A DNA stretch of 32,000 bases from Methanolobus psychrotolerans. Lineage in GTDB: Archaea; Halobacteriota; Methanosarcinia; Methanosarcinales; Methanosarcinaceae. A model generated the notes under the pieces. The model was not told the origin of the DNA. It saw only the letters and a program-made list of their open reading frames with translations, and ran no database searches. The stretch lies in contig NZ_MBKP01000045.1 in the NCBI RefSeq assembly GCF_002243045.1, forward strand, positions 10,740-42,739. The letters run 5' to 3'. A program made the translations under genes and the position numbers. Positions 4,724-31,893 of this stretch are shown here, piece after piece. The number at the start of each line of letters is the position of its first letter. Position 1 is the stretch's first letter.

Positions 4724-6549
4724 TTCTTCACCTCCGAGATAGCATCGAACTTGCACATGCGGGAACATACTCCACAGCCAGTGCACATGTTATTGATAGA
4801 TGCCTTTTTGGACTTTCCATCAAATTCAATTGCAGGGCAACCTAGATTTACACATATCCTACAGCCCGTACATTTGTCAGCATCGATAGTAAATGGCTTC
4901 CTTCGAACACCGGCACGTTTTGCATCGATGACACAATACTGTCTGGTAATGACAACAGACGTACCTTTATAACTTTTTGCCCTTTTGAAGACCTCTTCAG
5001 TCTGCTGAAGGTCATAAGGATCTACAACTTCCACAAACTCCGCACCAAGTCCTCTGCATAGGGCTTCAAGAGATACTTCCACTGTTTGCTCACCTGTTGC
5101 AGTCATACCCATTCCTGGATTTGGCTGATGACCGGTCATTGCGGTTATACGGTTGTCCACGATGGTTACGGTGATGTCAGCTTTATTATAGATTGCATTG
5201 AGCAGGCCGTTCATACCTGTGTGGAAGAATGTGGAGTCACCAATTGAACAGCATATAGGTTTTTTCTCCCCGGCCTGGTACATCCCACTTGCAACAGTTA
5301 TACTTCCACCCATACAAAGCGTGGTATCAACTGTACCACTCTGGATCCCTAGAGTGTAACAACCGATATCGCTCGGGAAGATGGCATCCTTACCATACAC
5401 TTTTTTCATGACGTGGAAAGTTGCCCTGTGAGAGCATCCCGGACACATGACAGGAGGACGCATAGGAAGGTCGATCCTGCATGCATTGTAATCAAAATCT
5501 TCTCCTACATCAGCCGGAACATCAGTCCTTTCAAGTCCGAGGACTTCTGCAAGGACATCTGCACATATATCGGTGTTCAGCTCGAACACTCTTGGAACAG
5601 GACCCTGCATCTTGCCGGTTATTTCCACTCCTGAACCTGCCTGCTGTGCTATTATCCTGACCTGCTCTTCAACGACAGGCTCCATTTCCTCGAAAACAAG
5701 AACGCGATCTGAATTCTCAATGATGGTCCGGATCTTGTGCTCAGGAACAGGATAGGTGCCTATCTTGAGGAATGAGGCGTTTATACCCAGTTTAATGAGT
5801 GCTTCTTTAGCATAGACAGAAGCAATTCCTGATGCTATGACACCGAGCTTTGCACCTTCCCGGATTTCCAGCTCGTTCCAGGGAGAATCCTCGAGTTCCC
5901 TGAGGATGTCCTTTTGCAGTTCAAGCAGGTGAACATGCTGCACCCTGGCATTCTTAGGGACCATTACCCATCTTTCGAGTTCCTTCCGGAAGTCTGCCAC
6001 AGGCTTTGTTTCATTTACAGGTCCAAGTTCCACATCGGATTTCCCATGAGAGATACGTGTTGTGGGCCTGAAAATAACAGGCATCTGAACCTTATTCGAT
6101 AACTCGAATGCATAGGTTATCATGTCCTTTGCTTCCTGTGGTGTTGACGGGTCCAGACATGGAATAAGTGAAAATTGTGAGTACCTGCGGGTGTCCTGCT
6201 CATTCTGCGATGAATGGCATGAAGGGTCATCTGCAACAATTATTATCATACTACCCTTGACACCCGTGTATGCGAGAGTCATTAACGGGTCTGCTGCAAC
6301 GTTAAGCCCGACATGCTTCATGGTGACTACGGAACGCACACCAGCCATCGCAGCACCGGCTGCCACTTCAAAGGCAACCTTCTCATTGACCGACCACTCT
6401 ACGTAAAAATCCCTTTCCTTCATTGCTGCCAGTGTACCGATAATCTCAGATGACGGTGTCCCAGGATACCCGGATATGACCTGTCCGCCACCTTCCACGA
6501 TACCGCGTGCAATTGCAACGTTTCCCAGCATGTACTCGCGTGTGCTCAT
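4720..6549 (-). CDS. iorA: Indolepyruvate:ferredoxin oxidoreductase, alpha subunit
   Basis: 609-aa ORF with AGGAG upstream of the ATG. It has a TPP-binding GDSTFFHTG motif and two C-terminal 4Fe-4S motifs (CTGCRICVNLGCP, CTGCGVCSRMC). Confidence 0.9.
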   Translation of the reverse strand: MSTREYMLGNVAIARGIVEGGGQVISGYPGTPSSEIIGTLAAMKERDFYVEWSVNEKVAFEVAAGAAMAGVRSVVTMKHVGLNVAADPLMTLAYTGVKGSMIIIVADDPSCHSSQNEQDTRRYSQFSLIPCLDPSTPQEAKDMITYAFELSNKVQMPVIFRPTTRISHGKSDVELGPVNETKPVADFRKELERWVMVPKNARVQHVHLLELQKDILRELEDSPWNELEIREGAKLGVIASGIASVYAKEALIKLGINASFLKIGTYPVPEHKIRTIIENSDRVLVFEEMEPVVEEQVRIIAQQAGSGVEITGKMQGPVPRVFELNTDICADVLAEVLGLERTDVPADVGEDFDYNACRIDLPMRPPVMCPGCSHRATFHVMKKVYGKDAIFPSDIGCYTLGIQSGTVDTTLCMGGSITVASGMYQAGEKKPICCSIGDSTFFHTGMNGLLNAIYNKADITVTIVDNRITAMTGHQPNPGMGMTATGEQTVEVSLEALCRGLGAEFVEVVDPYDLQQTEEVFKRAKSYKGTSVVITRQYCVIDAKRAGVRRKPFTIDADKCTGCRICVNLGCPAIEFDGKSKKASINNMCTGCGVCSRMCKFDAISEVKK

Positions 6550-6665
6550 GATAATCTCCTGCTAGCCCTTACTTAATAATTAGTGATAAAGATATCTAAG
6601 AAAAACAGAATCGTGTTACTGTGTGACAGAGGAAGAGGATTTGATGTTTTTAAAGAAAAGTGATT
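6513..6665. repeat. Direct repeat copy 1: the functional iorA 5' end (first ~12 codons), RBS, 5' leader and a TTTAAAAA TATA-like box
   Basis: Aligns with 7146-7295. The core 6531-6575 is identical to 7167-7211 (45 bp). The flanks are diverged, with a 7-bp indel and scattered substitutions. Confidence 0.85.
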
Positions 6666-6886
6666 GGTTTCATATACCCTTGTGAATTATCAAAACAGTC
6701 CTGTTTAATTTACATGTTATGTAAAGCCACCTTTACTTAGAAGTCTGCTCAACATTCTAAGTAAAGGATTCTTTGCTTAGAACAAAGAATAGCACTGAAA
6801 AATCAGAAAAAATAAATATGATATTCTCATGATTGACCCGCAAAAGAAACATTACATTTATACAGAATCAAAACGGATTAAATAAT

Positions 6887-7132
6887 ATGAGTTCATCAGC
6901 GGACATTGAGAACATGCTTCACAATATTGATAATGAACTGCACACAATCCTCAGCATGCTCAGGAAAAAGAGTACAACAGACCCAAAAGAAATTGTAGAA
7001 TCATCTCTGGGAGCATGGGATTTTGATATTGATAGCGAAGAGTTTGTAGATAAACTCAGGAAATCCTCATGCACCGTTCATGGAAGAGGGAAAACGAGTA
7101 ATCGCTTTTCCTTATTCACCGATAGGGACTAG
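6887..7132 (+). CDS. Small hypothetical protein (81 aa), possibly an orphan antitoxin-like protein
   Basis: This is the ATG-initiated part of track ORF 6833..7132. The segment SLGAWDFDIDSEEFVDKLRKS resembles the G.WK...D.EEF...LR tail common in small archaeal PIN-associated antitoxins. There is no partner gene. The ORF ends 14 bp before the repeat junction. Confidence 0.35.
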   Translation: MSSSADIENMLHNIDNELHTILSMLRKKSTTDPKEIVESSLGAWDFDIDSEEFVDKLRKSSCTVHGRGKTSNRFSLFTDRD

Positions 7133-7185
7133 GCATTTGTATTCATTTGCAACGTTTTCCAGCGCCTGTACTCGCGTGTGCTCAT
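7129..7185 (-). pseudogene. Truncated duplicate of the iorA 5' end (18-codon remnant)
   Basis: It reads MSTREY, identical to the iorA start, then shifts frame through an indel and stops at TAG (7129-7131). It is preceded by the duplicated RBS, leader and TATA-like box. Confidence 0.75.
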
Positions 7186-7295
7186 GATAATCTCCTGCTA
7201 GCCCTTACTTATTGATAAAAACATCTAAGAAATACAGAATCGTGTTACTGTGTGATAGAAGAGGAGGAATTTGGTTGCATTTTTAAAAAATAGAA
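7146..7295. repeat. Direct repeat copy 2: diverged duplicate of the iorA 5' end and promoter region
   Basis: See the entry for 6513-6665. The 45-bp perfect core is 7167-7211. The copy lies immediately downstream (minus-strand sense) of the DGR terminator region. Confidence 0.85.
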
Positions 7296-7329: not shown

Positions 7330-7382
7330 TTAAAACAAATTCCACCGCCGCTTTCGAAGATTTAGCCTACTTGAAGCAGTGG
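7330..7382 (-). terminator. Putative terminator of the DGR transcript (hairpin plus T-tract)
   Basis: The minus-strand RNA reads CCACUGCU...(loop)...GGCGGUGG, giving an ~8-bp stem with two G-U pairs. It is followed by AAUUUGUUUUAAAG. Oligo-T tracts are archaeal termination signals. Confidence 0.35.
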
Positions 7383-7486
7383 AGTCTTGCTTTTTGTCCA
7401 ATTAACTGGCACTGGGTCGTGGTCTGGTCATTATCATTGCTCTGGAACATTATCCCTGAACAACGTTCTTCCGGCAAGATACTGAG

Positions 7487-7614
7487 CTGAGAAGACGGAA
7501 ACCGATGTTGTTGTTGCTGTTGTCCGGGTTGTTGTTGTTGCGATTTGCTGACCGACAGTTCCTGGCGTTGTTGTTCCAGCTACCGCCACGTTTGACCCGG
7601 TTGGAGCTACTTCC
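7487..7614 (-). repeat. DGR template repeat (TR), non-coding, 128 bp
   Basis: It aligns without gaps to 9626-9753. On the minus strand it holds 13 AAC and 1 AAT codons in the VR frame. All 17 differences from the VR fall on TR adenines. It begins 5 nt after the RT stop codon. Confidence 0.95.
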
Positions 7615-7619
7615 GATCA

Positions 7620-8630
7620 CTAACCCTGAAAGTACATCCTGTTGAAGATGTCTTTCCTTAGATGATAGGTATTCCCGATTTTTAAGTGTTCCGTGATGCT
7701 CATGATAGATCGTGTGTACGTCTCTTCGGAAATTAGACCTTCCAAAAACTCATTATGTCTCAATTTCAACTTTTTCAGCGCCCTTCTTTTGTTTTCCTGC
7801 TTTATACGAAGGAGGTGCGGAAATATCCTGCATCCGAGGAACGACAATCCCTGGGAAACCGGAGCAATGACCGTTGCTGTTGCCTTGAGTTCCAGTTTAA
7901 GTTCCGTTCTCAGGAAATCATTGATGAAGGAGTGAAGAAGGTGCAATTCCTCTTTTTCGTCTGCGAAGAGGATGAAATCGTCCATATACCTGAGGTAATA
8001 CCTGACCCTGAGAGTATCTTTCACATAGTGATCGAGACTGTTGAGATAAAAATTAGCGAAATGCTGGCTTGTAAGATTGCCTATGGGGATGCCCTTTCCG
8101 GGGATATCGGACTGCGGGGAGTCAATAATAGTGTGCAGAAGCCATAGAAGATCAGGGTCCTTGAACTTTGTAGAGAACATTGCTTTTAAGATGCTTTGGT
8201 CAATGGTTTCGAAGAACTTCCTGATATCACATTTAAGAAAATACTTATTCTTGCGGGAATAAGTCTGAGCCTGTTTTATGGCGCGATGCGTCCCTTTACC
8301 TGTCCTGCAGGCATAGCTGTGATAAATGTAGCTCTTTTCCAGCAGGGGTTCGATGATCCGGCACAGAGCATGATGCACTACCCTGTCCCTGATGTCCGAC
8401 GCAGCTATTTCCCTGAGTTTAGGCTCCCTAATCTGGAATCTTCTCAATGGACGTGGTGCGTATGTCCGGTTAAGGAGTTCTTCCTGCAGGCACAAAAGCT
8501 CGGTTTCCATGTTGAAATAAAACTGTGATACCCTTGCCCTGTCTTTCTTGCCCTTGATAGCCGTTTTTGCAGCGGCGTGGAGGTTATCGAAAGATGTTAT
8601 TTCCGGGTACAGGTTGCCATAGCGCTTCAA
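7620..8630 (-). CDS. DGR-type reverse transcriptase
   Basis: 336-aa ORF with RT motifs: [13 protein letters not shown], the catalytic YMDDF, and the DGR-diagnostic IGNLTSQ ([ILV]G...SQ where group II intron RTs have QG...SP). The N-terminus [26 protein letters not shown] is typical of DGR RTs. The start is TTG, overlapping the avd TGA as TTGA. The gene ends with the tandem stops TAG TGA. Confidence 0.92.
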
Positions 8631-8971
8631 GCCTGTGCACTTCCCCTGAGCCAGGCACCAGTCATCCTGCCCACCTCGTTGATGTGTATCATTGCATATT
8701 CGAACTGTTTGTTGGAGAGATAATGTTGTTCATGGCAGATGCGCAGGAGTATCCTGAGCTTCTCGAACTTGATATTGATCATCTTAAAGCCGGTTTTCCT
8801 TGCATATGTATCGTATCTGAACTCGATGATGTCTTCAAGTATGTCAAGAGCAAGGTTGTCTATTCGTGTGGTAAAAGTGAACCTCACTTTTTTAGGGAAT
8901 TTCTCAGTAGTATTGAGCAGCCATTTCAGAAAATCCGTCCACTTGACAAATAACTGCAGTTCGTCATCCAT
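8627..8971 (-). CDS. avd: Accessory variability determinant (Avd), four-helix-bundle family
   Basis: I chose ATG at 8971 (MDDELQLFVKWTDFLKWLL..EKFPKKVRFTF..RID..ALDILEDII....LRILLRICHEQHYLS...EVGRMTGAWLR). The pattern matches Avd / 23S-IVS four-helix-bundle proteins. The gene overlaps the HRDC gene end by 8 nt. Confidence 0.8.
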   Translation of the reverse strand: MDDELQLFVKWTDFLKWLLNTTEKFPKKVRFTFTTRIDNLALDILEDIIEFRYDTYARKTGFKMINIKFEKLRILLRICHEQHYLSNKQFEYAMIHINEVGRMTGAWLRGSAQA

Positions 8972-9470
8972 CCTCCGGCTCCTCCTCCTTCGTTTCCTCT
9001 GCAACCTGCTGACCGTGCGATGCGATTATCCCGAGGATGTCCCTGCCGTATTTTTCCGTCTTCCCCTTGCCGATGCCCTCGATGGCCTGCAGGGCATTGA
9101 GCGACAAGGGCCGCGTCACCGCGACCTTGGCAAGCTGCATATTGTTGCATATTATGTAAGGCGGCACTCCCTCCTCCTTGCTCCTTTCAGCTCTCCACTC
9201 CCGGAGCACCTTGAACAGCGGCCAGTCATTTTCGCTCAGTATCTTCTTGTACCCTTCGTCTTTGTTTTCCTGCTGCTTCCGGGCATTGCCACCTTCCGAA
9301 GGTACAAGCTGCGTATATTCAACAAGCACGGTCCAGAAGTACTCATTCTTGCGCTCAAAAAAGTTGCTTTCCCATCTCAGAATATCCTTGTCCGCAAGAA
9401 AGTTGCACATCGCAGCGTCCGGGAAACTCTCGGACTTTTCCTCATACTTGATGGTGAATATTTTGAGCAT
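8964..9470 (-). CDS. HRDC-domain DGR accessory protein
   Basis: 168-aa ORF. The C-terminal half matches the HRDC pattern (LFKVLREWRAERSKEEGVPPYIICNNMQLAKVAVTRPLSLNALQAIEGIGKGKTEKYGRDIL). I do not recognise the N-terminal ~70 aa. Confidence 0.8.
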   Translation of the reverse strand: MLKIFTIKYEEKSESFPDAAMCNFLADKDILRWESNFFERKNEYFWTVLVEYTQLVPSEGGNARKQQENKDEGYKKILSENDWPLFKVLREWRAERSKEEGVPPYIICNNMQLAKVAVTRPLSLNALQAIEGIGKGKTEKYGRDILGIIASHGQQVAEETKEEEPEDG

Positions 9471-9495
9471 GCTTTTTTTCTCACAATAGATTTTT

Positions 9496-9556
9496 GGCGC
9501 GGCTTGCGCACCTCGCCTGTGCGGCTACGCACGCACCTGCTCGGGCTTCAGCCGCA
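9496..9556 (-). other. GC-rich structured island between the VR/target stop and the HRDC gene
   Basis: This ~60-bp stretch is very GC-rich within an AT-rich spacer. GCGGCT occurs twice (9499-9504, 9521-9526) and its complement AGCCGC occurs at 9550-9555, giving a 7-bp stem TGCGGCT/AGCCGCA. GCACCT.GC is also directly repeated. Confidence 0.4.
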
Positions 9557-9615
9557 TTTTTTCTTTTGTAAAGTAATTTTTCAATAAAGTTGTAAAGTGG
9601 TAAAGCAGTAAGTGG

Positions 9616-11829
9616 CTACACTGCCCTGAGAAGACGGAAACCGATGCTGTCGCTGCTGCAGTCCGGGTTGCTGCCGTTGCGACTTGCTGACCGACAGTAC
9701 CTGGCGTCGCTGACCCAGCTACCGCCACGTCTGACCCGGCCGGAGCTACTTCCATCTTCCCAGGCACTACCATCAGTAGGTGCATTCTCATAAGAATCAT
9801 GCCACCTGTCCTGGCACCATTCCCAGACATTGCCGTGCATATCATACAAACCCCAGGGATTCGGCTTCTTCTGACCAACAGGATGTGTCTTATCTCCTGA
9901 ATTACCACCATACCAGGCATAATCTCCAAGTTTTGATTCACTATCCCCAAATGAATACCTCGTGGTCGTGCCTGCCCTTGCAGCATACTCCCACTCAGCT
10001 TCAGATGGAAGGCGGTACTTGTCCGTGCCTTCCTTTGCGTTCAGCTTCTTGACGAACTCCTGTACATCATTCCATGAAACCTGTTCAACAGGATTATTGT
10101 CACCTTTAAAACGCGATGGATTGTTACCCATTATCTCAACCCACTGCTCCTGAGTCACTTCATACTTGCCAAGATAGTAGGCCTTCCCGATGGTCACTTC
10201 GTGAACGGGTCTTTCATCGGAATCTCCATCATCTGAACCCATCTCAAACTCGCCCGCCGGAATCAGCACGAACTCCATGCCAATGGAGTTGGTGTAGGTC
10301 TTGGGGGTGGTCTGCTTACTGGCAGTTGAGGTAGCTTTCTCCTCGGTGACCGCGGGTGTGGTTTGAGTAACGGCTGGTGAAGGATTGGCGGCCGCAAGCT
10401 CAGCCTCAGTAGCAGCCGGTGAAGGATCAACGACCTCGGTCTTCTGGGGAACAACAGCATTCTGATTCCCTGAATTGTCCGCCAGCAGCGGCGAGAACAT
10501 CCAGTAGCCTGCAATAACGATAATGATCAATACGGGAATAAAAAGCAATTTACGGCCTGCATTTCTCTCCTTGGGAGGCGCAACAGGCCGCCTCACGGGA
10601 GCGGGGGCTGGCTTTGAGGGCACCGATACCGGCGGGACAACTGTCGGCTTCGGGGCCTGTTGCTCCCTTTCCAGCGATCTTTTTGCTGAATCCTGCCACT
10701 TGCGGAACTCTTCTTCTTCTTTTCTCTTTTTCTCAGCTTCCAGGACTTTTCTTTGCTCCTCCTCTTTTCTGCGCCGCGCTCTTTCTTCCTCTTCTCTGGC
10801 AGCTTTCAGGCGGGCGGCTTCCTGAGCCTTGCGTTCTTCCTCTCTCCTGCGCCGCTCCACTTCCTCCTTCTCACGGCGCTCCTGCTCTTCCCGTTCCCTG
10901 TGCAGGCGCTCTTCTTCTTTTCTAGCGGCGTCTGCTTTTATGGTAGTGTGCTGCACGACACTGTCCTGCACATTGACAGATGCAGAGGAAGACTCCATTC
11001 CGCTTCTCTGCACGACGCTGTCCCTTACGTTCATTGAGGACGGACCGCCGTCCATGGAAAAGTTGCTGCGCTGGACCACGGAATCTATGATATTGATGAC
11101 CTGTTCGTGCCGGATGACGCCGATCTCCCTTGCGGACCTTACAGTGCTCACAAGGTGCTTGAGTTCGGAGACGATCTCATTGAGAAAACCCTGCAGGCCG
11201 TGAGTTTTATCGGATACTGCACGCAGCATCACCTGGGTCTGTCCTTCCTTTCCTTTTATCAGGACAGTAAGCAAGTAATACGCCTTCTCACCGATGGATT
11301 CACTGGACAGATACAGAATTCTGCCGCCATCCACAGAGCGCTCTTCAACTTTGTACAGGCGATTGGTGCAGGTCTGCATCAGGAATGACAGCACCTGATC
11401 CACACTTACACCCTCAAAATTCATGCCGGCTTCCGCCGAGTGACCACCGGAGGAAAGTTCCAGGAACCTGCCTGTGCCCATGGACATTGCACGCAGGAAA
11501 GGACAAACACAGTGAATTTCCTTACGGCGCATGCTGAGCAGATGCTTTTCATACTCATGATCGTTATACTTGACAGTGGCTTCGATGTATTCTTTATGAA
11601 CACAGCCCAGAGGTTTGAGTACGAATTTAGCAGTACGTTCCTTTGCAGGCGGAATATTGCCAAGTTTCTGTATCCTGTCATCCTGTAAGCTGAAAAGAGA
11701 TTCGGGGTAATCCAGGATGATCTCAACTTCCAAAATGGCAGCAGTGCTATTGTTGATCACTCTTATTCCAAACCTCACACTATTGTCAGGCAGGACTTCA
11801 TAACCCCGTTTGATCTCAATATCTGCCAT
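9616..11829 (-). CDS. DGR target protein. Domain order: cytoplasmic N-terminal domain, charged coiled coil, TM helix, T/P/A linker, FGE-sulfatase (C-type-lectin fold) domain.
   Basis: 737-aa ORF.
- The C-terminal ~230 aa match the FGE-sulfatase/SUMF1 pattern (RPVHEVTI..YEVTQEQW..VSWNDVQEFVKKLN..YRLPSEAEWEYAARAG..NPWGLYDMHGNVWEWCQD..RGGSW).
- There is one hydrophobic helix (LLFIPVLIIIVIAGYWMF) preceded by KERNAGRK.
- An E/R/K-rich segment covers ~10690-10930.
- A triple repeat of DSVVQRS is present. Confidence 0.9.
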   Translation of the reverse strand: MADIEIKRGYEVLPDNSVRFGIRVINNSTAAILEVEIILDYPESLFSLQDDRIQKLGNIPPAKERTAKFVLKPLGCVHKEYIEATVKYNDHEYEKHLLSMRRKEIHCVCPFLRAMSMGTGRFLELSSGGHSAEAGMNFEGVSVDQVLSFLMQTCTNRLYKVEERSVDGGRILYLSSESIGEKAYYLLTVLIKGKEGQTQVMLRAVSDKTHGLQGFLNEIVSELKHLVSTVRSAREIGVIRHEQVINIIDSVVQRSNFSMDGGPSSMNVRDSVVQRSGMESSSASVNVQDSVVQHTTIKADAARKEEERLHREREEQERREKEEVERRRREEERKAQEAARLKAAREEEERARRRKEEEQRKVLEAEKKRKEEEEFRKWQDSAKRSLEREQQAPKPTVVPPVSVPSKPAPAPVRRPVAPPKERNAGRKLLFIPVLIIIVIAGYWMFSPLLADNSGNQNAVVPQKTEVVDPSPAATEAELAAANPSPAVTQTTPAVTEEKATSTASKQTTPKTYTNSIGMEFVLIPAGEFEMGSDDGDSDERPVHEVTIGKAYYLGKYEVTQEQWVEIMGNNPSRFKGDNNPVEQVSWNDVQEFVKKLNAKEGTDKYRLPSEAEWEYAARAGTTTRYSFGDSESKLGDYAWYGGNSGDKTHPVGQKKPNPWGLYDMHGNVWEWCQDRWHDSYENAPTDGSAWEDGSSSGRVRRGGSWVSDARYCRSASRNGSNPDCSSDSIGFRLLRAV
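9626..9753 (-). repeat. DGR variable repeat (VR), the last 43 codons of the target gene
   Basis: 128 bp, 111/128 identical to the TR. All 17 differences are at TR adenines (14 A->G, 3 A->T on the coding strand). It encodes GSSSGRVRRGGSWVSDARYCRSASRNGSNPDCSSDSIGFRLL. Confidence 0.95.
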
Positions 11830-28232: not shown

Positions 28233-31200
28233 TTACTGATGCAAAGGAAGACGCATATGCATTGTTGTCCCTTTTCCCTCTTCACTTGTGACATGGATAT
28301 CACCCTTGTGATCCTCAATTATCTTTTTACAGATGTATAGACCAAGACCCGTACCCCCATATCGTCTCCTCACAGACGAATCAACCTGATAGAAGCGTTC
28401 GAAAAGTTTAGGGATCTTGTCTGCAGGAATACCGATGCCAGTATCCTGCACAGTCACATACATGGAATCCTCTGTGGCGTGTGCAGAAATAGTGACCTTT
28501 CCATCTTGCGGTGTGAATTTTATAGCATTGTCTATCAGATTGACAAAGACATCCATCATCTTATCACGGTCAGCAGTTACAGTGGGAAGATCTGTGGGAA
28601 TATCCCTCACAAGTTTGATACCCTTCCCATCTGCCTGAAGTGCAAGGTCCTGAATCGAATTATCAATAACATCTGCAAGATTTATGTTCTCAAATGAATA
28701 ATTCAGCTTTCCAGACTGTGCCCTGCTGAGATATAACAAGGAATCCACAAGTCGGCGTAGACGTTCTGAATTCCTTATAACGGTATCCTCCGCCTTTTTC
28801 TGCTGCTCGTTAACAGAACCCAGAGTCTCATCCGCTATCAACTGGCTGTATCCCTGTATCGAGGTAAGAGGTGTCTTAAACTCATGGCTTACATTGGAAA
28901 GGAAATCATCCTTCATCCTGTCAAGTGATTTCAATTCCTCGTTGGCCAAGGAAAGTTCGGCATTTGCCATTGATAGCTCGGCATTGACCCTGGATAGCTC
29001 ATCAGCATATTCCCGCAGCGTATCCTCAGCTTTTTTACGTTGTATAAGTCTCCACATGCCTTCCATGAACAATGTCAGTTGCCTTAGATCAGATTTATTA
29101 TACTCTTCTTCTTTATTTCCAACACCTGCCGCACCAACTATTTTCTTGCCATCAAATATTGGGATATTCATGTAGCGTTTCAAAGGAATATGACCTTCCG
29201 GATAACCATGCTTCATTGGATTGGGAGCATCAAAATCATTGATTATGATAGCTTTTTTCTGCCTAATGGATTCACCCCACAAGCCGGTGCTATCGAGAGG
29301 ATATTCAAGCTTCATTCCCTTTACCTTGCATTCCTTCATTATATTCTGTGACCAGGAATACACAGTAAGAACTGTACCTTCCTCATTTAGGAAAGCAAGA
29401 TAACCTATCTTACTCTGAGTAAGCCTGACAGCTTCTTCCTGCACAAAATCAGCAATCTCCTTAAGAGAAGTGTCAGTCAGCTGGTTGATCTTCAAAAGTG
29501 CTTCAAGTCTTGATTCATCAAGACGCAAAGCCTCTTCCGCTTTTTTACGTACCGATATATCCCCAAAAATACCAATACCACCAAGGAAAGTACCATCTTC
29601 TGCAACATTTGGACTGTAATCAGCCTTGAGGTAGACATCCTTTCCGCTGATAACCGTATGATATTTACCTTCAAAATGTCCTGTTTTCCTGGAAAGAACA
29701 TCTTCAATCGCCTGTTTCATCATCGTATCCTTTATCCTTCGGACCATGTTAAAACCGATGATGTCTTCTTTTTTCTCCAGGCCTATTATCTGCAGGAATT
29801 TCTCGTTGCAATGAGTAACAATGCCTTCAGCATTAAAATGGAATATTCCAAGGGGAGAATTCTCAAAGATAAGACGGTATTTCTTCTCAGCTTCAAAGAA
29901 GGCTTCTTCTGTCTTTTTGCGTTCCGAGATATCCTCAAATACCCCTATACCACAATGTAAAGTTCCATCAGCTGAGATATTAGGACTAAAATATGCCTTA
30001 ATGATGATTGTAACATCACTCAAAACTGTATGGTATTTACCTTCAAAATAACCCTGCTTTCCTGAGAGGACTTGATCTACCGCCTCTTTCATTCTTATGT
30101 CTACGATGGAATCTATAATGTTGAAGCCAATAACATCCTCTTTCCTTCTGAGATGCATTATTTCCAGGAACTTCTCATTGCAGTGAGTGATGATGCCTTT
30201 TTCATTGAAGTGGAAAAGGCCCAGGGGAGAGTTCTCAAAGATAAGGCGGTATTTCATCTCAGACTCAAGGGCGGCCTCTTCGGCCTTTTTCCTTTCGGTT
30301 ATGTCAATTATAATACCTTGATAATATGCAGGATTTCCTTTTTCATCCCTGATAAGATACGACCTCTCAGTGACCCATCTGACTTCACCTGATTTCGTTA
30401 TCAAACGGTACTCTTTTGAAAAGAACATCTTACCCTGAACTTCAAGCTGAGAAACATCTGTTCGGACATAATTCAGATCATCCGGATGAATGATGTCACC
30501 ATATTTTATTTCACCAGATATCAGATCATCAGCACTGTAACCGAACTGAGAAATATTCTCGGAAACAAAAACTACTGGCCAATCATCTTCAGAAATCCAG
30601 AGGAAAGCAACAACCGGACTTTTTCGGTAAATATCCTCCAGCTTTTGGATCGATTTGAACTTATCTTGCATGGTCTTATGGTCGATCTTTTGTTCCACAA
30701 GCTTACCAATGGTCCCGAGCATACCGCCATAATTGCCTTCATCATCTGTCAGAGGAAGCAGAAAACCGCTGTGATATATGAACTGGCCGTCGGGTTTGAT
30801 GAAAGGGAAAATATCATAACTTCTTGATTCAAGACTCTCCTTTACCATCTGAAAAACATCAATAAAAGCTAATTCGCCCTCGCCGGCGTGGTGAGGTATG
30901 AAACTGACAAGCTTTTTCCCGAACACGTCACCTTTTGACAGACCAGAAATGGATTCCATGCCTTTGTTAAAGTAAACGATATTGTCATGCTTATCCACAG
31001 CCCAGACGCCGGTCCATACATTCTCAAGCATATCATCGGGAAAATGGGTCTCTTTTTGAATGGTTTTACAGGAGGAGGAACTTTGGAGCAGTGTCCACCT
31101 GTCGTTCTGCTTAATGATAGTCCCATCGTGCATGCCGATAATCTCAAGTATCTCAGACCTTGTGCGAGCTTCTAGCAAAAAAGCGAACAACCCGACTATA

Positions 31201-31616
31201 CCCTTCATTTTGATGAGTTCTGTGGCTTTTTTTTCGTATTCAACGAACTGTTGCCAGGCATCTTCTCCGACAATGGTGAACTTATCGACGATCCTCAGAC
31301 CTGCATAACCTTCAGCTATTGCAATACTATGCATTTCTTCCCATTTTTTAAGGTCCATTTCAGAGACAGCATCCTCTCCGGCAATATAACACTCATTGCA
31401 GGATGCAAGCATAAGCTGCCCGCTTTCAAGATACGTATCTACATCCAGACCAGCTTCTTTTAGCAAGGTCTTCGCATCATTAGTATCAAGCTGTCCTGAA
31501 ACTCCCCAGATGCAACACTCGTTGTTCCTGAAACCCGCATCAAAGAAAGAGGCTACTATATCGACAAACTCTTCAGTGCTCTTGTAGAGCAGGGAAAAAT
31601 AACTCCCTTGTGTCAT
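28233..31616 (-). CDS. Multi-sensor histidine kinase: MEDS domain, several PAS domains, GAF, HisKA, HATPase_c
   Basis: 1127-aa ORF.
- N-terminus is MEDS-like (YFSLLYKSTEEFVDIVASFFDAGFRNNECCIWGV).
- Repeated PAS units each end in I..ITERKKAEE-type linkers.
- A GAF-like segment is present.
- The H-box is FLSNVSHEFKTPLTSI.
- The N and G boxes are NLIDNAIKFT and DTGIGI..GGTGLGL. Confidence 0.88.
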   Translation of the reverse strand: MTQGSYFSLLYKSTEEFVDIVASFFDAGFRNNECCIWGVSGQLDTNDAKTLLKEAGLDVDTYLESGQLMLASCNECYIAGEDAVSEMDLKKWEEMHSIAIAEGYAGLRIVDKFTIVGEDAWQQFVEYEKKATELIKMKGIVGLFAFLLEARTRSEILEIIGMHDGTIIKQNDRWTLLQSSSSCKTIQKETHFPDDMLENVWTGVWAVDKHDNIVYFNKGMESISGLSKGDVFGKKLVSFIPHHAGEGELAFIDVFQMVKESLESRSYDIFPFIKPDGQFIYHSGFLLPLTDDEGNYGGMLGTIGKLVEQKIDHKTMQDKFKSIQKLEDIYRKSPVVAFLWISEDDWPVVFVSENISQFGYSADDLISGEIKYGDIIHPDDLNYVRTDVSQLEVQGKMFFSKEYRLITKSGEVRWVTERSYLIRDEKGNPAYYQGIIIDITERKKAEEAALESEMKYRLIFENSPLGLFHFNEKGIITHCNEKFLEIMHLRRKEDVIGFNIIDSIVDIRMKEAVDQVLSGKQGYFEGKYHTVLSDVTIIIKAYFSPNISADGTLHCGIGVFEDISERKKTEEAFFEAEKKYRLIFENSPLGIFHFNAEGIVTHCNEKFLQIIGLEKKEDIIGFNMVRRIKDTMMKQAIEDVLSRKTGHFEGKYHTVISGKDVYLKADYSPNVAEDGTFLGGIGIFGDISVRKKAEEALRLDESRLEALLKINQLTDTSLKEIADFVQEEAVRLTQSKIGYLAFLNEEGTVLTVYSWSQNIMKECKVKGMKLEYPLDSTGLWGESIRQKKAIIINDFDAPNPMKHGYPEGHIPLKRYMNIPIFDGKKIVGAAGVGNKEEEYNKSDLRQLTLFMEGMWRLIQRKKAEDTLREYADELSRVNAELSMANAELSLANEELKSLDRMKDDFLSNVSHEFKTPLTSIQGYSQLIADETLGSVNEQQKKAEDTVIRNSERLRRLVDSLLYLSRAQSGKLNYSFENINLADVIDNSIQDLALQADGKGIKLVRDIPTDLPTVTADRDKMMDVFVNLIDNAIKFTPQDGKVTISAHATEDSMYVTVQDTGIGIPADKIPKLFERFYQVDSSVRRRYGGTGLGLYICKKIIEDHKGDIHVTSEEGKGTTMHMRLPLHQ

Positions 31617-31716
31617 GTCCCCTATAAAATCAATGTCCGATTTGATTGTCTGGATGCTGATATTATAACCCCGTATATGTGATAATTACGAGCGAGTAAC
31701 AATCCTACTAACGATC

Positions 31717-31848
31717 CTACTCAATAGATACTCAATAGATACTCAATAGATACTCAATAGATACTCAATAGATACTCAATAGATACTCAATAGATACTCA
31801 ATAGATACTCAATAGATACTCAATAGATACTCAATAGATACTTAATAA
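31717..31848. repeat. Tandem repeat of an 11-bp unit ATACTCAATAG: 10 perfect copies plus one degenerate copy at each end
   Basis: 31728-31837 is 10 exact consecutive units. 31717-31727 (CTACTCAATAG) and 31838-31848 (ATACTTAATAA) are imperfect. The array is non-coding and lies ~100 bp upstream of the kinase ATG. Confidence 0.95.
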
Positions 31849-31893
31849 TAAGAGTATTAAACTCTTATACTTAATTAATTACTTTGATAGCGG

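Follow-up and report, generated by a model that had tools for sequence, protein, structure and literature searches.

An apparently intact diversity-generating retroelement in the cultured methanogen Methanolobus psychrotolerans

What kind of process leaves two copies of a 128-nt sequence that disagree at a single type of base, and does it still run in a cultured archaeon? The question is raised by a 32,000-nt stretch of the Methanolobus psychrotolerans genome (assembly GCF_002243045.1, contig NZ_MBKP01000045.1, positions 10,740–42,739; this whole stretch is called the window below). An initial annotation of the window had read the two copies as the template repeat (TR) and variable repeat (VR) of a diversity-generating retroelement (DGR), a class of element that is, to our knowledge, the only natural system of targeted protein hypermutation known in prokaryotes. 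We conclude that the window very probably holds a chromosomal DGR of M. psychrotolerans, apparently intact with all its parts present. Its mechanism is that of a classical DGR and is well known; its value lies in an intact cassette in a cultured archaeon, which belongs with the bacterial TvpA type and not with the divergent type of the nanoarchaea.

The repeat pair and its cassette

Re-alignment of TR and VR on the minus strand (Table 1) returned the counts first reported: 128 nt without gaps and 17 mismatches, comprising 14 A-to-G and 3 A-to-T changes from TR to VR. All 17 fall on TR adenines (17 of 42 adenines against 0 of 86 other bases), and a check for mismatches off TR adenines found none within the 128 nt. 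The bias itself thus stands, and the rough chance estimate first attached to it (6e-9) gives way to a hypergeometric probability of 4.1e-10. The absence of differences among the 86 non-adenine positions argues that the last homing event was recent. A repeat search identified TR and VR as the sole long repeat of such kind in the window and added 6 nt on the 3′ side (to 7481/9620), where two non-adenine mismatches occur. The two copies are identical, adenines included, over their first 12 nt, as claimed, and over their last 21 nt, one more than had been counted; this 3′ end is plausibly an end like the initiation of mutagenic homing (IMH) site. No second VR was found in the window, where the 20-nt 3′ end matches only TR and VR.

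An ordinary partial duplication, in which normal mutation has altered a pseudogenised copy of the target's 3′ end, would suit two copies lying 2.1 kb apart on one strand, one of them non-coding. Normal divergence, however, would not confine all 17 differences to a single base in just one of the copies (p = 4e-10), and the adenine pattern recurs beside reverse transcriptase (RT) and Avd in every relative compared, that is, on the contigs that carry the closest RTs (61–70% identity), from uncultured Methanosarcinales-type archaea including two Halobacteriota metagenome-assembled genomes (MAGs). We therefore give a plain duplication hardly any credence.

Read in the VR frame, the 42 adenines of TR include those of 14 AAY codons (13 AAC and 1 AAT), and 13 codons are altered in VR (12 AAY and 1 AAA); these codon counts and the translations in the initial annotation all match our recomputation. 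Its statement that mutagenesis yields no stop codons holds for the AAY codons but not for the AAA codon, at the position of K700, which can mutate to a stop. Similarly, its figure of 15^14 variants (about 3e16; 2.9e16 as recomputed) is right for AAY codons alone, whereas all adenine-bearing codons together give a theoretical protein diversity of ~7e21.

The DGR reading is borne out by the surrounding genes, since RT, Avd, HRDC and C-type-lectin (CLec) target genes all adjoin the repeat pair on the same strand; the initial annotation of the pair had identified neither them nor the RNA scaffold around TR. The cassette runs, on the minus strand throughout, in the order target, HRDC gene, avd, RT, TR and a ~165-nt structured RNA element; its four open reading frames (ORFs) are open and the catalytic motifs are intact. 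Avd scores 101.9 bits against the NCBIfam equivalog model NF033474 (DivGenRetAVD; curated cut-off 80) and matches Pfam bAvd (E 1.9e-19), and the same 114-aa avd gene is called on an identical contig, L001. The HRDC gene sits between target and avd, a position equivalent in all close relatives.

The RT carries the motifs IGNLTSQ (at 183) and YMDD (at 215). It is 100% identical to the NCBI protein ‘RNA-directed DNA polymerase [Methanolobus psychrotolerans]’, the next best RT being 70% identical, and shares 35.8% identity with Brt of the Bordetella phage BPP-1. Its best match in the Protein Data Bank (PDB) is the 328-aa RT of 8ub7 (E 8e-54), which we take to be the Bordetella phage bRT; group II intron RTs follow at 2e-22. 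Could it instead be the RT of a group II intron, a retron or a defence system (DRT/Abi), with the repeat unrelated to it? Matches to such families exist, namely group II intron RT/maturase (142 bits), Drt3a (72 bits) and retron St85 RT (64 bits), but all are sub-threshold, the curated cut-offs being far higher (300, 200 and 235 bits, respectively). Moreover, the 336 aa contain no maturase or endonuclease domain, the window contains no Rfam group II intron or retron non-coding RNA, the 8ub7 RT is the best PDB match by 30 orders of magnitude, and the DGR-type IGxxxSQ motif is present with Avd adjacent. A different kind of RT is accordingly a very remote prospect; we reject it as refuted by the Rfam search, the PDB match and the RT family scores, and the plain duplication as refuted by the adenine bias and the relatives.

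Table 1 Features of the cassette and its flanking signals (positions in the window)
Feature	Position	Strand	Remarks
DGR target gene	9616..11829	minus	737 aa; from the ORF list
Variable repeat (VR)	9626..9753	minus	Encodes aa 693–735 of the target C-terminus; 128-nt ungapped match to TR
Non-coding block after VR and stop codon	9585..9619	minus	(C/T)ACTTTAC repeats
GC-rich blocks, target–HRDC spacer	9521..9553	minus	Small hairpin GGCTGAAGCC and invariant core GCGTGCGTAGCCGC
HRDC-domain accessory gene	8964..9470	minus	168 aa, isoelectric point 5.1; Pfam HRDC E 5.5e-21
avd (accessory variability determinant)	8627..8971	minus	114 aa from ATG, isoelectric point 9.1; ORF open from 9004
DGR reverse transcriptase (RT)	7620..8630	minus	336 aa, isoelectric point 9.6; RVT_1
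TR-bracketing duplex, 5′ strand	7615..7626	minus	GGGTTAGTGATC; overlaps RT stop codon
Template repeat (TR)	7487..7614	minus	Starts 6 nt past RT stop; VR homology fades over 7481–7486
Structured RNA element 3′ of TR	7332..7494	minus	~165 nt; alignment of 10 relatives
Helix 1	7487–7474 with 7440–7427	minus	RNA element
Helix 2	7468–7445	minus	10-bp stem-loop with tetraloop
TR-bracketing duplex, 3′ strand	7424–7414	minus	Pairs with 7626..7615 (RNA duplex prediction)
Small hairpin	7409–7398	minus	RNA element
Terminal GC-rich hairpin	7385–7339	minus	Followed by T-run

Target protein, RNA scaffold and target site

VR lies at the C-terminus of a 737-aa ORF, as the initial annotation had placed it. The protein comprises a conserved N-terminal domain (aa 1–257), a Glu/Arg/Lys-rich segment (aa ~296–400), one transmembrane helix (aa 428–445), a Pro/Thr/Ala-rich linker and an FGE-type C-type-lectin domain (aa 519–735; Pfam FGE-sulfatase, E 6e-55). 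In the PDB the lectin domain is closest to TvpA (2y3c, E 9e-40), the variable protein of the Treponema DGR, which aligns without gaps across the whole VR. Among 40 homologues, the 14 positions encoded by AAY in TR have a mean entropy of 3.25 bits, compared with 0.88 bits elsewhere, and the AAY and AAA positions together supply 13 of the 16 most variable columns. The invariant end of VR encodes IGFRLL, the last beta-strand of the lectin fold; in Mtd and TvpA this strand is encoded by the non-variable IMH (PMC5006420). The N-side flank of the transmembrane helix is strongly positive, and by the positive-inside rule the lectin domain would face outward with the N-terminus inside. Most likely the target serves at the surface as a variable adhesin or ligand-binding receptor.

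The N-terminal domain (11059–11829) has no Pfam match and belongs to a family almost confined to Methanosarcinales, Methanoperedens and anaerobic methanotrophic (ANME) archaea, in which it is fused to varied C-terminal modules (pilin-like, FKBP, ricin, TPM, zinc-ribbon, TPR and FGE-sulfatase). Its AlphaFold model is confident (predicted local distance difference test (pLDDT) 82) and combines a beta-sandwich with an alpha/beta platform; the best PDB folds are adaptin/COPI appendage (‘ear’) domains, with E values of 1e-9 to 1e-6 and TM-scores of only 0.32–0.47. Paralogues of the domain in other Methanolobus genomes adjoin a PIN+T2SSE ATPase, and we rejected orthology between the target and these genes, which occupy a different, conserved locus beside that ATPase.

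Public annotation seems to cover the target only in part. NCBI appears to annotate just its last 220 aa (9616–10275) as a ‘formylglycine-generating enzyme family protein’ (P0241), and the protein database lacks both the 737-aa form and its N-terminal domain. We take the long form as real because no stop interrupts the 737 codons and the N-terminal part of the protein is 60–70% identical to the family. The public labels, together with ‘RNA-directed DNA polymerase’ for the RT, conceal the DGR.

A global fold of the TR region alone was not significant (z = −0.6), and its structure emerged only by comparison with relatives. The alignment of ten sequences supports 43 pairs in four main helices (96.5% of cells paired), with compensatory changes in 15 of the 43 pairs compared with 6.1 ± 1.7 in shuffled alignments (0 of 500 reach 15) and 1–6 in slid controls. 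A covariance model built on this element (R1) scores 146 bits in the window, the highest of all loci, and finds the element in ~25 distant bacterial DGR loci, always on the RT strand. Most of these matches lie just after RT and TR; in three loci (L011, L027 and L070) the element lies just upstream of RT, the position of the Bordetella spacer. The duplex that brackets TR was compared across 22 loci, where strands paired with their own partner average −20.0 kcal/mol versus −14.4 with foreign partners; in divergent loci the two strands are unrelated in sequence yet mutually complementary. Two features reported for the Bordetella DGR RNA and predicted in 207 other DGRs, a tetraloop stem-loop of 9–10 bp just after TR and a duplex between upstream and downstream sequence (bioRxiv 10.1101/2023.10.23.563531), are both present in the window as helix 2 and the TR-bracketing duplex. 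The terminal hairpin and T-run occur in the window and most relatives, and the hairpin may also end the transcript. Because helix 1 begins where TR/VR homology stops, the start of cDNA synthesis can be placed, tentatively, at the edge of TR, as in Bordetella.

R1 gave no match on a Methanosarcinales virus DGR. A scan of viral contigs with an 18-nt core of the element was not used, as its 51 matches are about the number estimated by chance for 14 specified bases.

Sequence conservation extends behind VR. The (C/T)ACTTTAC repeats and, ~80 nt beyond them, the invariant GCGTGCGnAGCCGC (9534..9521) of the GC-rich core follow every VR of close relatives. They also follow both VRs of the downstream targets of L150, where no HRDC gene follows, and an orphan FGE-type lectin gene in Methanolobus sp. 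ZRKC4 (L157 6966–7140), where the (C/T)ACTTTAC block is ~90% identical and the 3′ flank (~81–90%) is better conserved than the coding domain (79%). Both blocks are absent from the distant bacterial loci. RNAalifold predicts a 6-pair hairpin with one covarying pair in the VR-3′ flank; base pairing in the blocks has little support, and we report the blocks as sequence conservation only. Our hypothesis is that they may act in target recognition.

These parts suggest the following scheme, drawn from homology with the Bordetella phage system. A transcript would start at the end of the RT gene, span TR and reach the terminal hairpin (about 7626 to 7332), with the duplex bracketing TR, and the basic RT–Avd complex would bind this RNA scaffold. 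cDNA synthesis would begin at the 3′ edge of TR, beside helix 1, where we predict the priming nucleotide around 7425–7427, with misincorporation opposite adenines; substitutions in the lineage rank A-to-G, then A-to-T, then A-to-C. The cDNA would replace VR at the 3′ end of the target gene, where the invariant last 21 nt, and possibly also the blocks behind the stop codon, would signal where the target site lies. A role of the acidic HRDC protein in handling nucleic acid during homing is probable. The product would be a single-pass membrane protein with its N-terminus inside and an extracellular C-type-lectin tip open to ~1e16 to 1e21 sequences.

Relatives, activity and genomic setting

The order FGE-sulfatase target, HRDC, bAvd, RT and TR is found in every close relative with enough flanking DNA except L148, whose contig begins just upstream of RT and whose CLec target lies downstream of TR. 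The relatives’ own TR/VR pairs (120–125 nt) differ solely or almost solely at adenines: mismatches fall on TR adenines in 16 of 16 cases in L082, 13 of 13 in L083, 27 of 27 in L085, 25 of 25 in L143, 25 of 26 in L147, 18 of 19 and 24 of 24 in the two VRs of L150, 14 of 17 in L084 and 18 of 22 in L148. The comparison of VRs between sister MAGs that the initial annotation had proposed as a check favours a DGR. Between MAG contigs L082 and L083, RT and TR are identical and the VRs are not: of the ~28 differences over 3.1 kb, 19 lie in the 121-nt VR, all at TR adenines. The lineage is therefore active in nature.

Farther away, an RT-alignment profile search of genome contigs listed only matches of ≤49% identity; among the matches listed, the distant RTs (38–49% identity) come from Desulfobacterota, Cyanobacteria, Chloroflexota, Acidobacteria and some DPANN archaea. 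Against the window TR, the VR of the ZRKC4 lectin gene differs at 28 positions, of which 22 are adenines; no RT or TR was found within 6 kb of that gene. Three metagenome contigs (L086, L087 and L088) have the TR-3′ RNA element joined straight to the 5′ end of an HRDC gene, without avd, RT or TR, and look like deletion derivatives of the cassette.

The targets of the closest relatives are of another make. In L082 (1590–6467) a TIR domain is fused to the lectin domain, beside TIR-NACHT-TPR and SLATT genes. In L150 (1–3960 and 7181–8911) and L148 (1830–4423), the targets join a caspase (Peptidase_C14) to the lectin domain, in three copies, or lie near a KAP/NB-ARC NTPase. The DGR targets of these archaeal relatives are conflict-system-like.

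Is the cassette of M. psychrotolerans itself still at work? It may be a once-active DGR that is now a silent relic, its parts readable and its VR frozen in the strain. This would fit the VR shared with the independent Logan assembly L001, the single VR shared by three assemblies with a related RT (P0002), and the decay seen in the lineage, where L086–L088 keep the TR-3′ element without avd, RT or TR, and ZRKC4 keeps a target and its 3′ flank with neither RT nor TR nearby. On the other side, a relic would not be expected to keep all four ORFs open, its catalytic motifs intact and the best-scoring RNA scaffold of all loci, nor to show 0 of 86 non-adenine mismatches, given that the homologous ZRKC4 domain has diverged by 21% at the DNA level; and a consensus assembly cannot show low-frequency variants. 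We hold a relic to be unlikely, although it is the alternative with most in its favour, and judge that the cassette is probably, but far from certainly, active today in M. psychrotolerans.

Several observations weigh against an active DGR with an outward-facing target. The sole other copy of the cassette that we found, on L001 (SRR21765252), is 100% identical, VR included. Behind VR there is no GC-rich IMH or strong hairpin, and the lone stem there, of 5 bp, is equalled by shuffled sequence (z = 0.16). Even with filters off, R1 did not match the BPP-1 spacer (Sp) region (L155 1651–1794), and its best match elsewhere had E > 0.1. The AlphaFold model of the lectin domain is poor over VR (pLDDT 34–50) and was set aside, so that the TvpA alignment is the only guide to whether the variable residues lie exposed at the surface; the extracellular location depends on one predicted transmembrane helix and the positive-inside rule. 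Since R1 misses the Bordetella Sp, our claim that the RNA scaffold may be functionally analogous to the Bordetella DGR RNA draws on position and architecture, not on RNA homology.

A bolder account would join several of these elements: an active DGR in a cultivable methanogen, whose targets would be recognised by the conserved blocks (CTTTAC repeats and GCGTGCGnAGCCGC), with the HRDC protein as their possible reader, instead of by a Bordetella-type GC-rich IMH and hairpin. The variation would then fall on the outside tip of a membrane protein specific to the lineage, whose cytoplasmic domain is adaptin-appendage-like and two-lobed. That all of this holds together is a speculative and rather improbable proposition.

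Housekeeping genes flank the cassette on the chromosome (truD, iorAB, proA, proB, cca for the CCA-adding enzyme, ADP-PFK, argJ and argC), so it is not a provirus. Its G+C content is slightly above that of the flanks, with no clear island signal from base composition. Within the window no Rfam family was matched and no tRNA gene was found; a sigma-70 promoter and terminator scan was uninformative for an archaeal host.

Beside the cassette, the upstream region of iorA and its first ~45 nt are duplicated ~630 bp upstream (6528–6642 and 7164–7271; 86–94% identity). The upstream copy ends as a 17-codon stub, and a plus-strand 99-aa ORF between the copies (6833–7132) has no Pfam or NCBIfam match; the duplication may be the scar of an insertion. 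At the far end of the window, a tandem array of the 11-nt unit TACTCAATAGA (31685–31880; ~13 copies, mostly perfect) lies directly upstream of a gene for a 1127-aa MEDS-PAS-GAF histidine kinase (28233–31616, minus strand), within which a 372-nt direct repeat (29647–30305; 72–77% identity) corresponds to tandem PAS domains.

Comparison with known DGRs

Archaeal DGRs are rare, having been found in 20 of 3,038 archaeal MAGs in one survey (PMC11661182), and the examples in the surveyed literature are uncultivated DPANN archaea and an ANME virus. Global surveys mention DGRs in Euryarchaeota, with the genus Methanolobus not named, and we found no paper that combines ‘diversity-generating retroelement’ with Methanolobus. 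Diversification by cellular DGRs has been confirmed molecularly only in Legionella (PMC10907252). If active, the cassette would be, as far as our literature search showed, the first archaeal DGR open to laboratory experiments. With an intact cassette in a cultured Methanolobus, adenine mutagenesis, target recognition and the HRDC protein could be studied directly in an archaeon. The cassette further places a DGR lineage of bacterial type (TvpA/FGE) on record in Methanosarcinales-type archaea, attached to conflict-system proteins (TIR, caspase and NTPase) and, in the window genome, to a lineage-specific membrane protein.

The prototype, the DGR of Bordetella phage BPP-1 (mtd-avd-TR-brt), shares with the window adenine-specific transfer from TR to VR, an RT of the same family and an Avd partner. 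In both, VR sits at the extreme C-terminus of an FGE-type C-type-lectin fold whose last beta-strand is encoded by the invariant VR end (PMC5006420), and TR lies within a structured RNA with an upstream/downstream duplex and a stem-loop after TR. Unlike the phage element, the window DGR is cellular and archaeal. Its order is avd-RT-TR, with the structured element in non-coding DNA past TR and not between TR and RT; it has an extra HRDC gene; its target is a membrane protein, not a tail fibre; VR is followed by neither a GC-rich IMH nor a strong hairpin; and its RNA element has no detectable homology to Sp.

The DGR of Treponema denticola is similar in its variable protein, TvpA being the closest solved relative of the window target domain. 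HRDC genes are rare, being present in 4% of the DGRs catalogued (together with avd in roughly half of these), and cluster in the RT clade of the Treponema DGR; the window cassette resembles this HRDC-bearing ‘Architecture C’ (Wu et al. 2018, PMC5758913), and cassettes in the order avd-RT-TR have been catalogued already (PMC5758913). In contrast to the Treponema system, the host is an archaeon and the window holds one target only, in which the lectin domain shares one polypeptide with a transmembrane helix, a charged segment and an N-terminal domain specific to Methanosarcinales.

Further likenesses connect the window with the cellular DGRs of multicellular bacteria (Dore et al. 2024, PMC10907252), a study in which methanogens are not mentioned. 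Its nearest bacterial RTs, among the matches listed, are from Desulfobacterota, Cyanobacteria, Chloroflexota and Acidobacteria, many with the TR-3′ RNA element, and its closest archaeal relatives diversify lectin proteins linked to TIR, caspase or NTPase domains. The window target differs from those bacterial targets in having no TIR, NACHT/STAND, caspase or vWA domain. Membership of the window RT in clade 5 of Roux et al. is only a lead.

With the archaeal DGRs described earlier, namely the AvpA type of Nanoarchaeota/DPANN and that of the ANME-1 virus ANMV-1 (Paul et al. 2015, 2017), the window shares an archaeal host, adenine mutagenesis and a C-type-lectin scaffold (PMC5006420). Those elements come from uncultivated organisms, and AvpA is a divergent lectin subclass with an internal VR, whereas the window proteins belong to the bacterial FGE/TvpA type and their host, a methanogen, has been cultured. 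Proteins of this bacterial type in a methanogen suggest that the cassette may derive from transfer between Bacteria and Methanosarcinales rather than from ancient archaeal descent.

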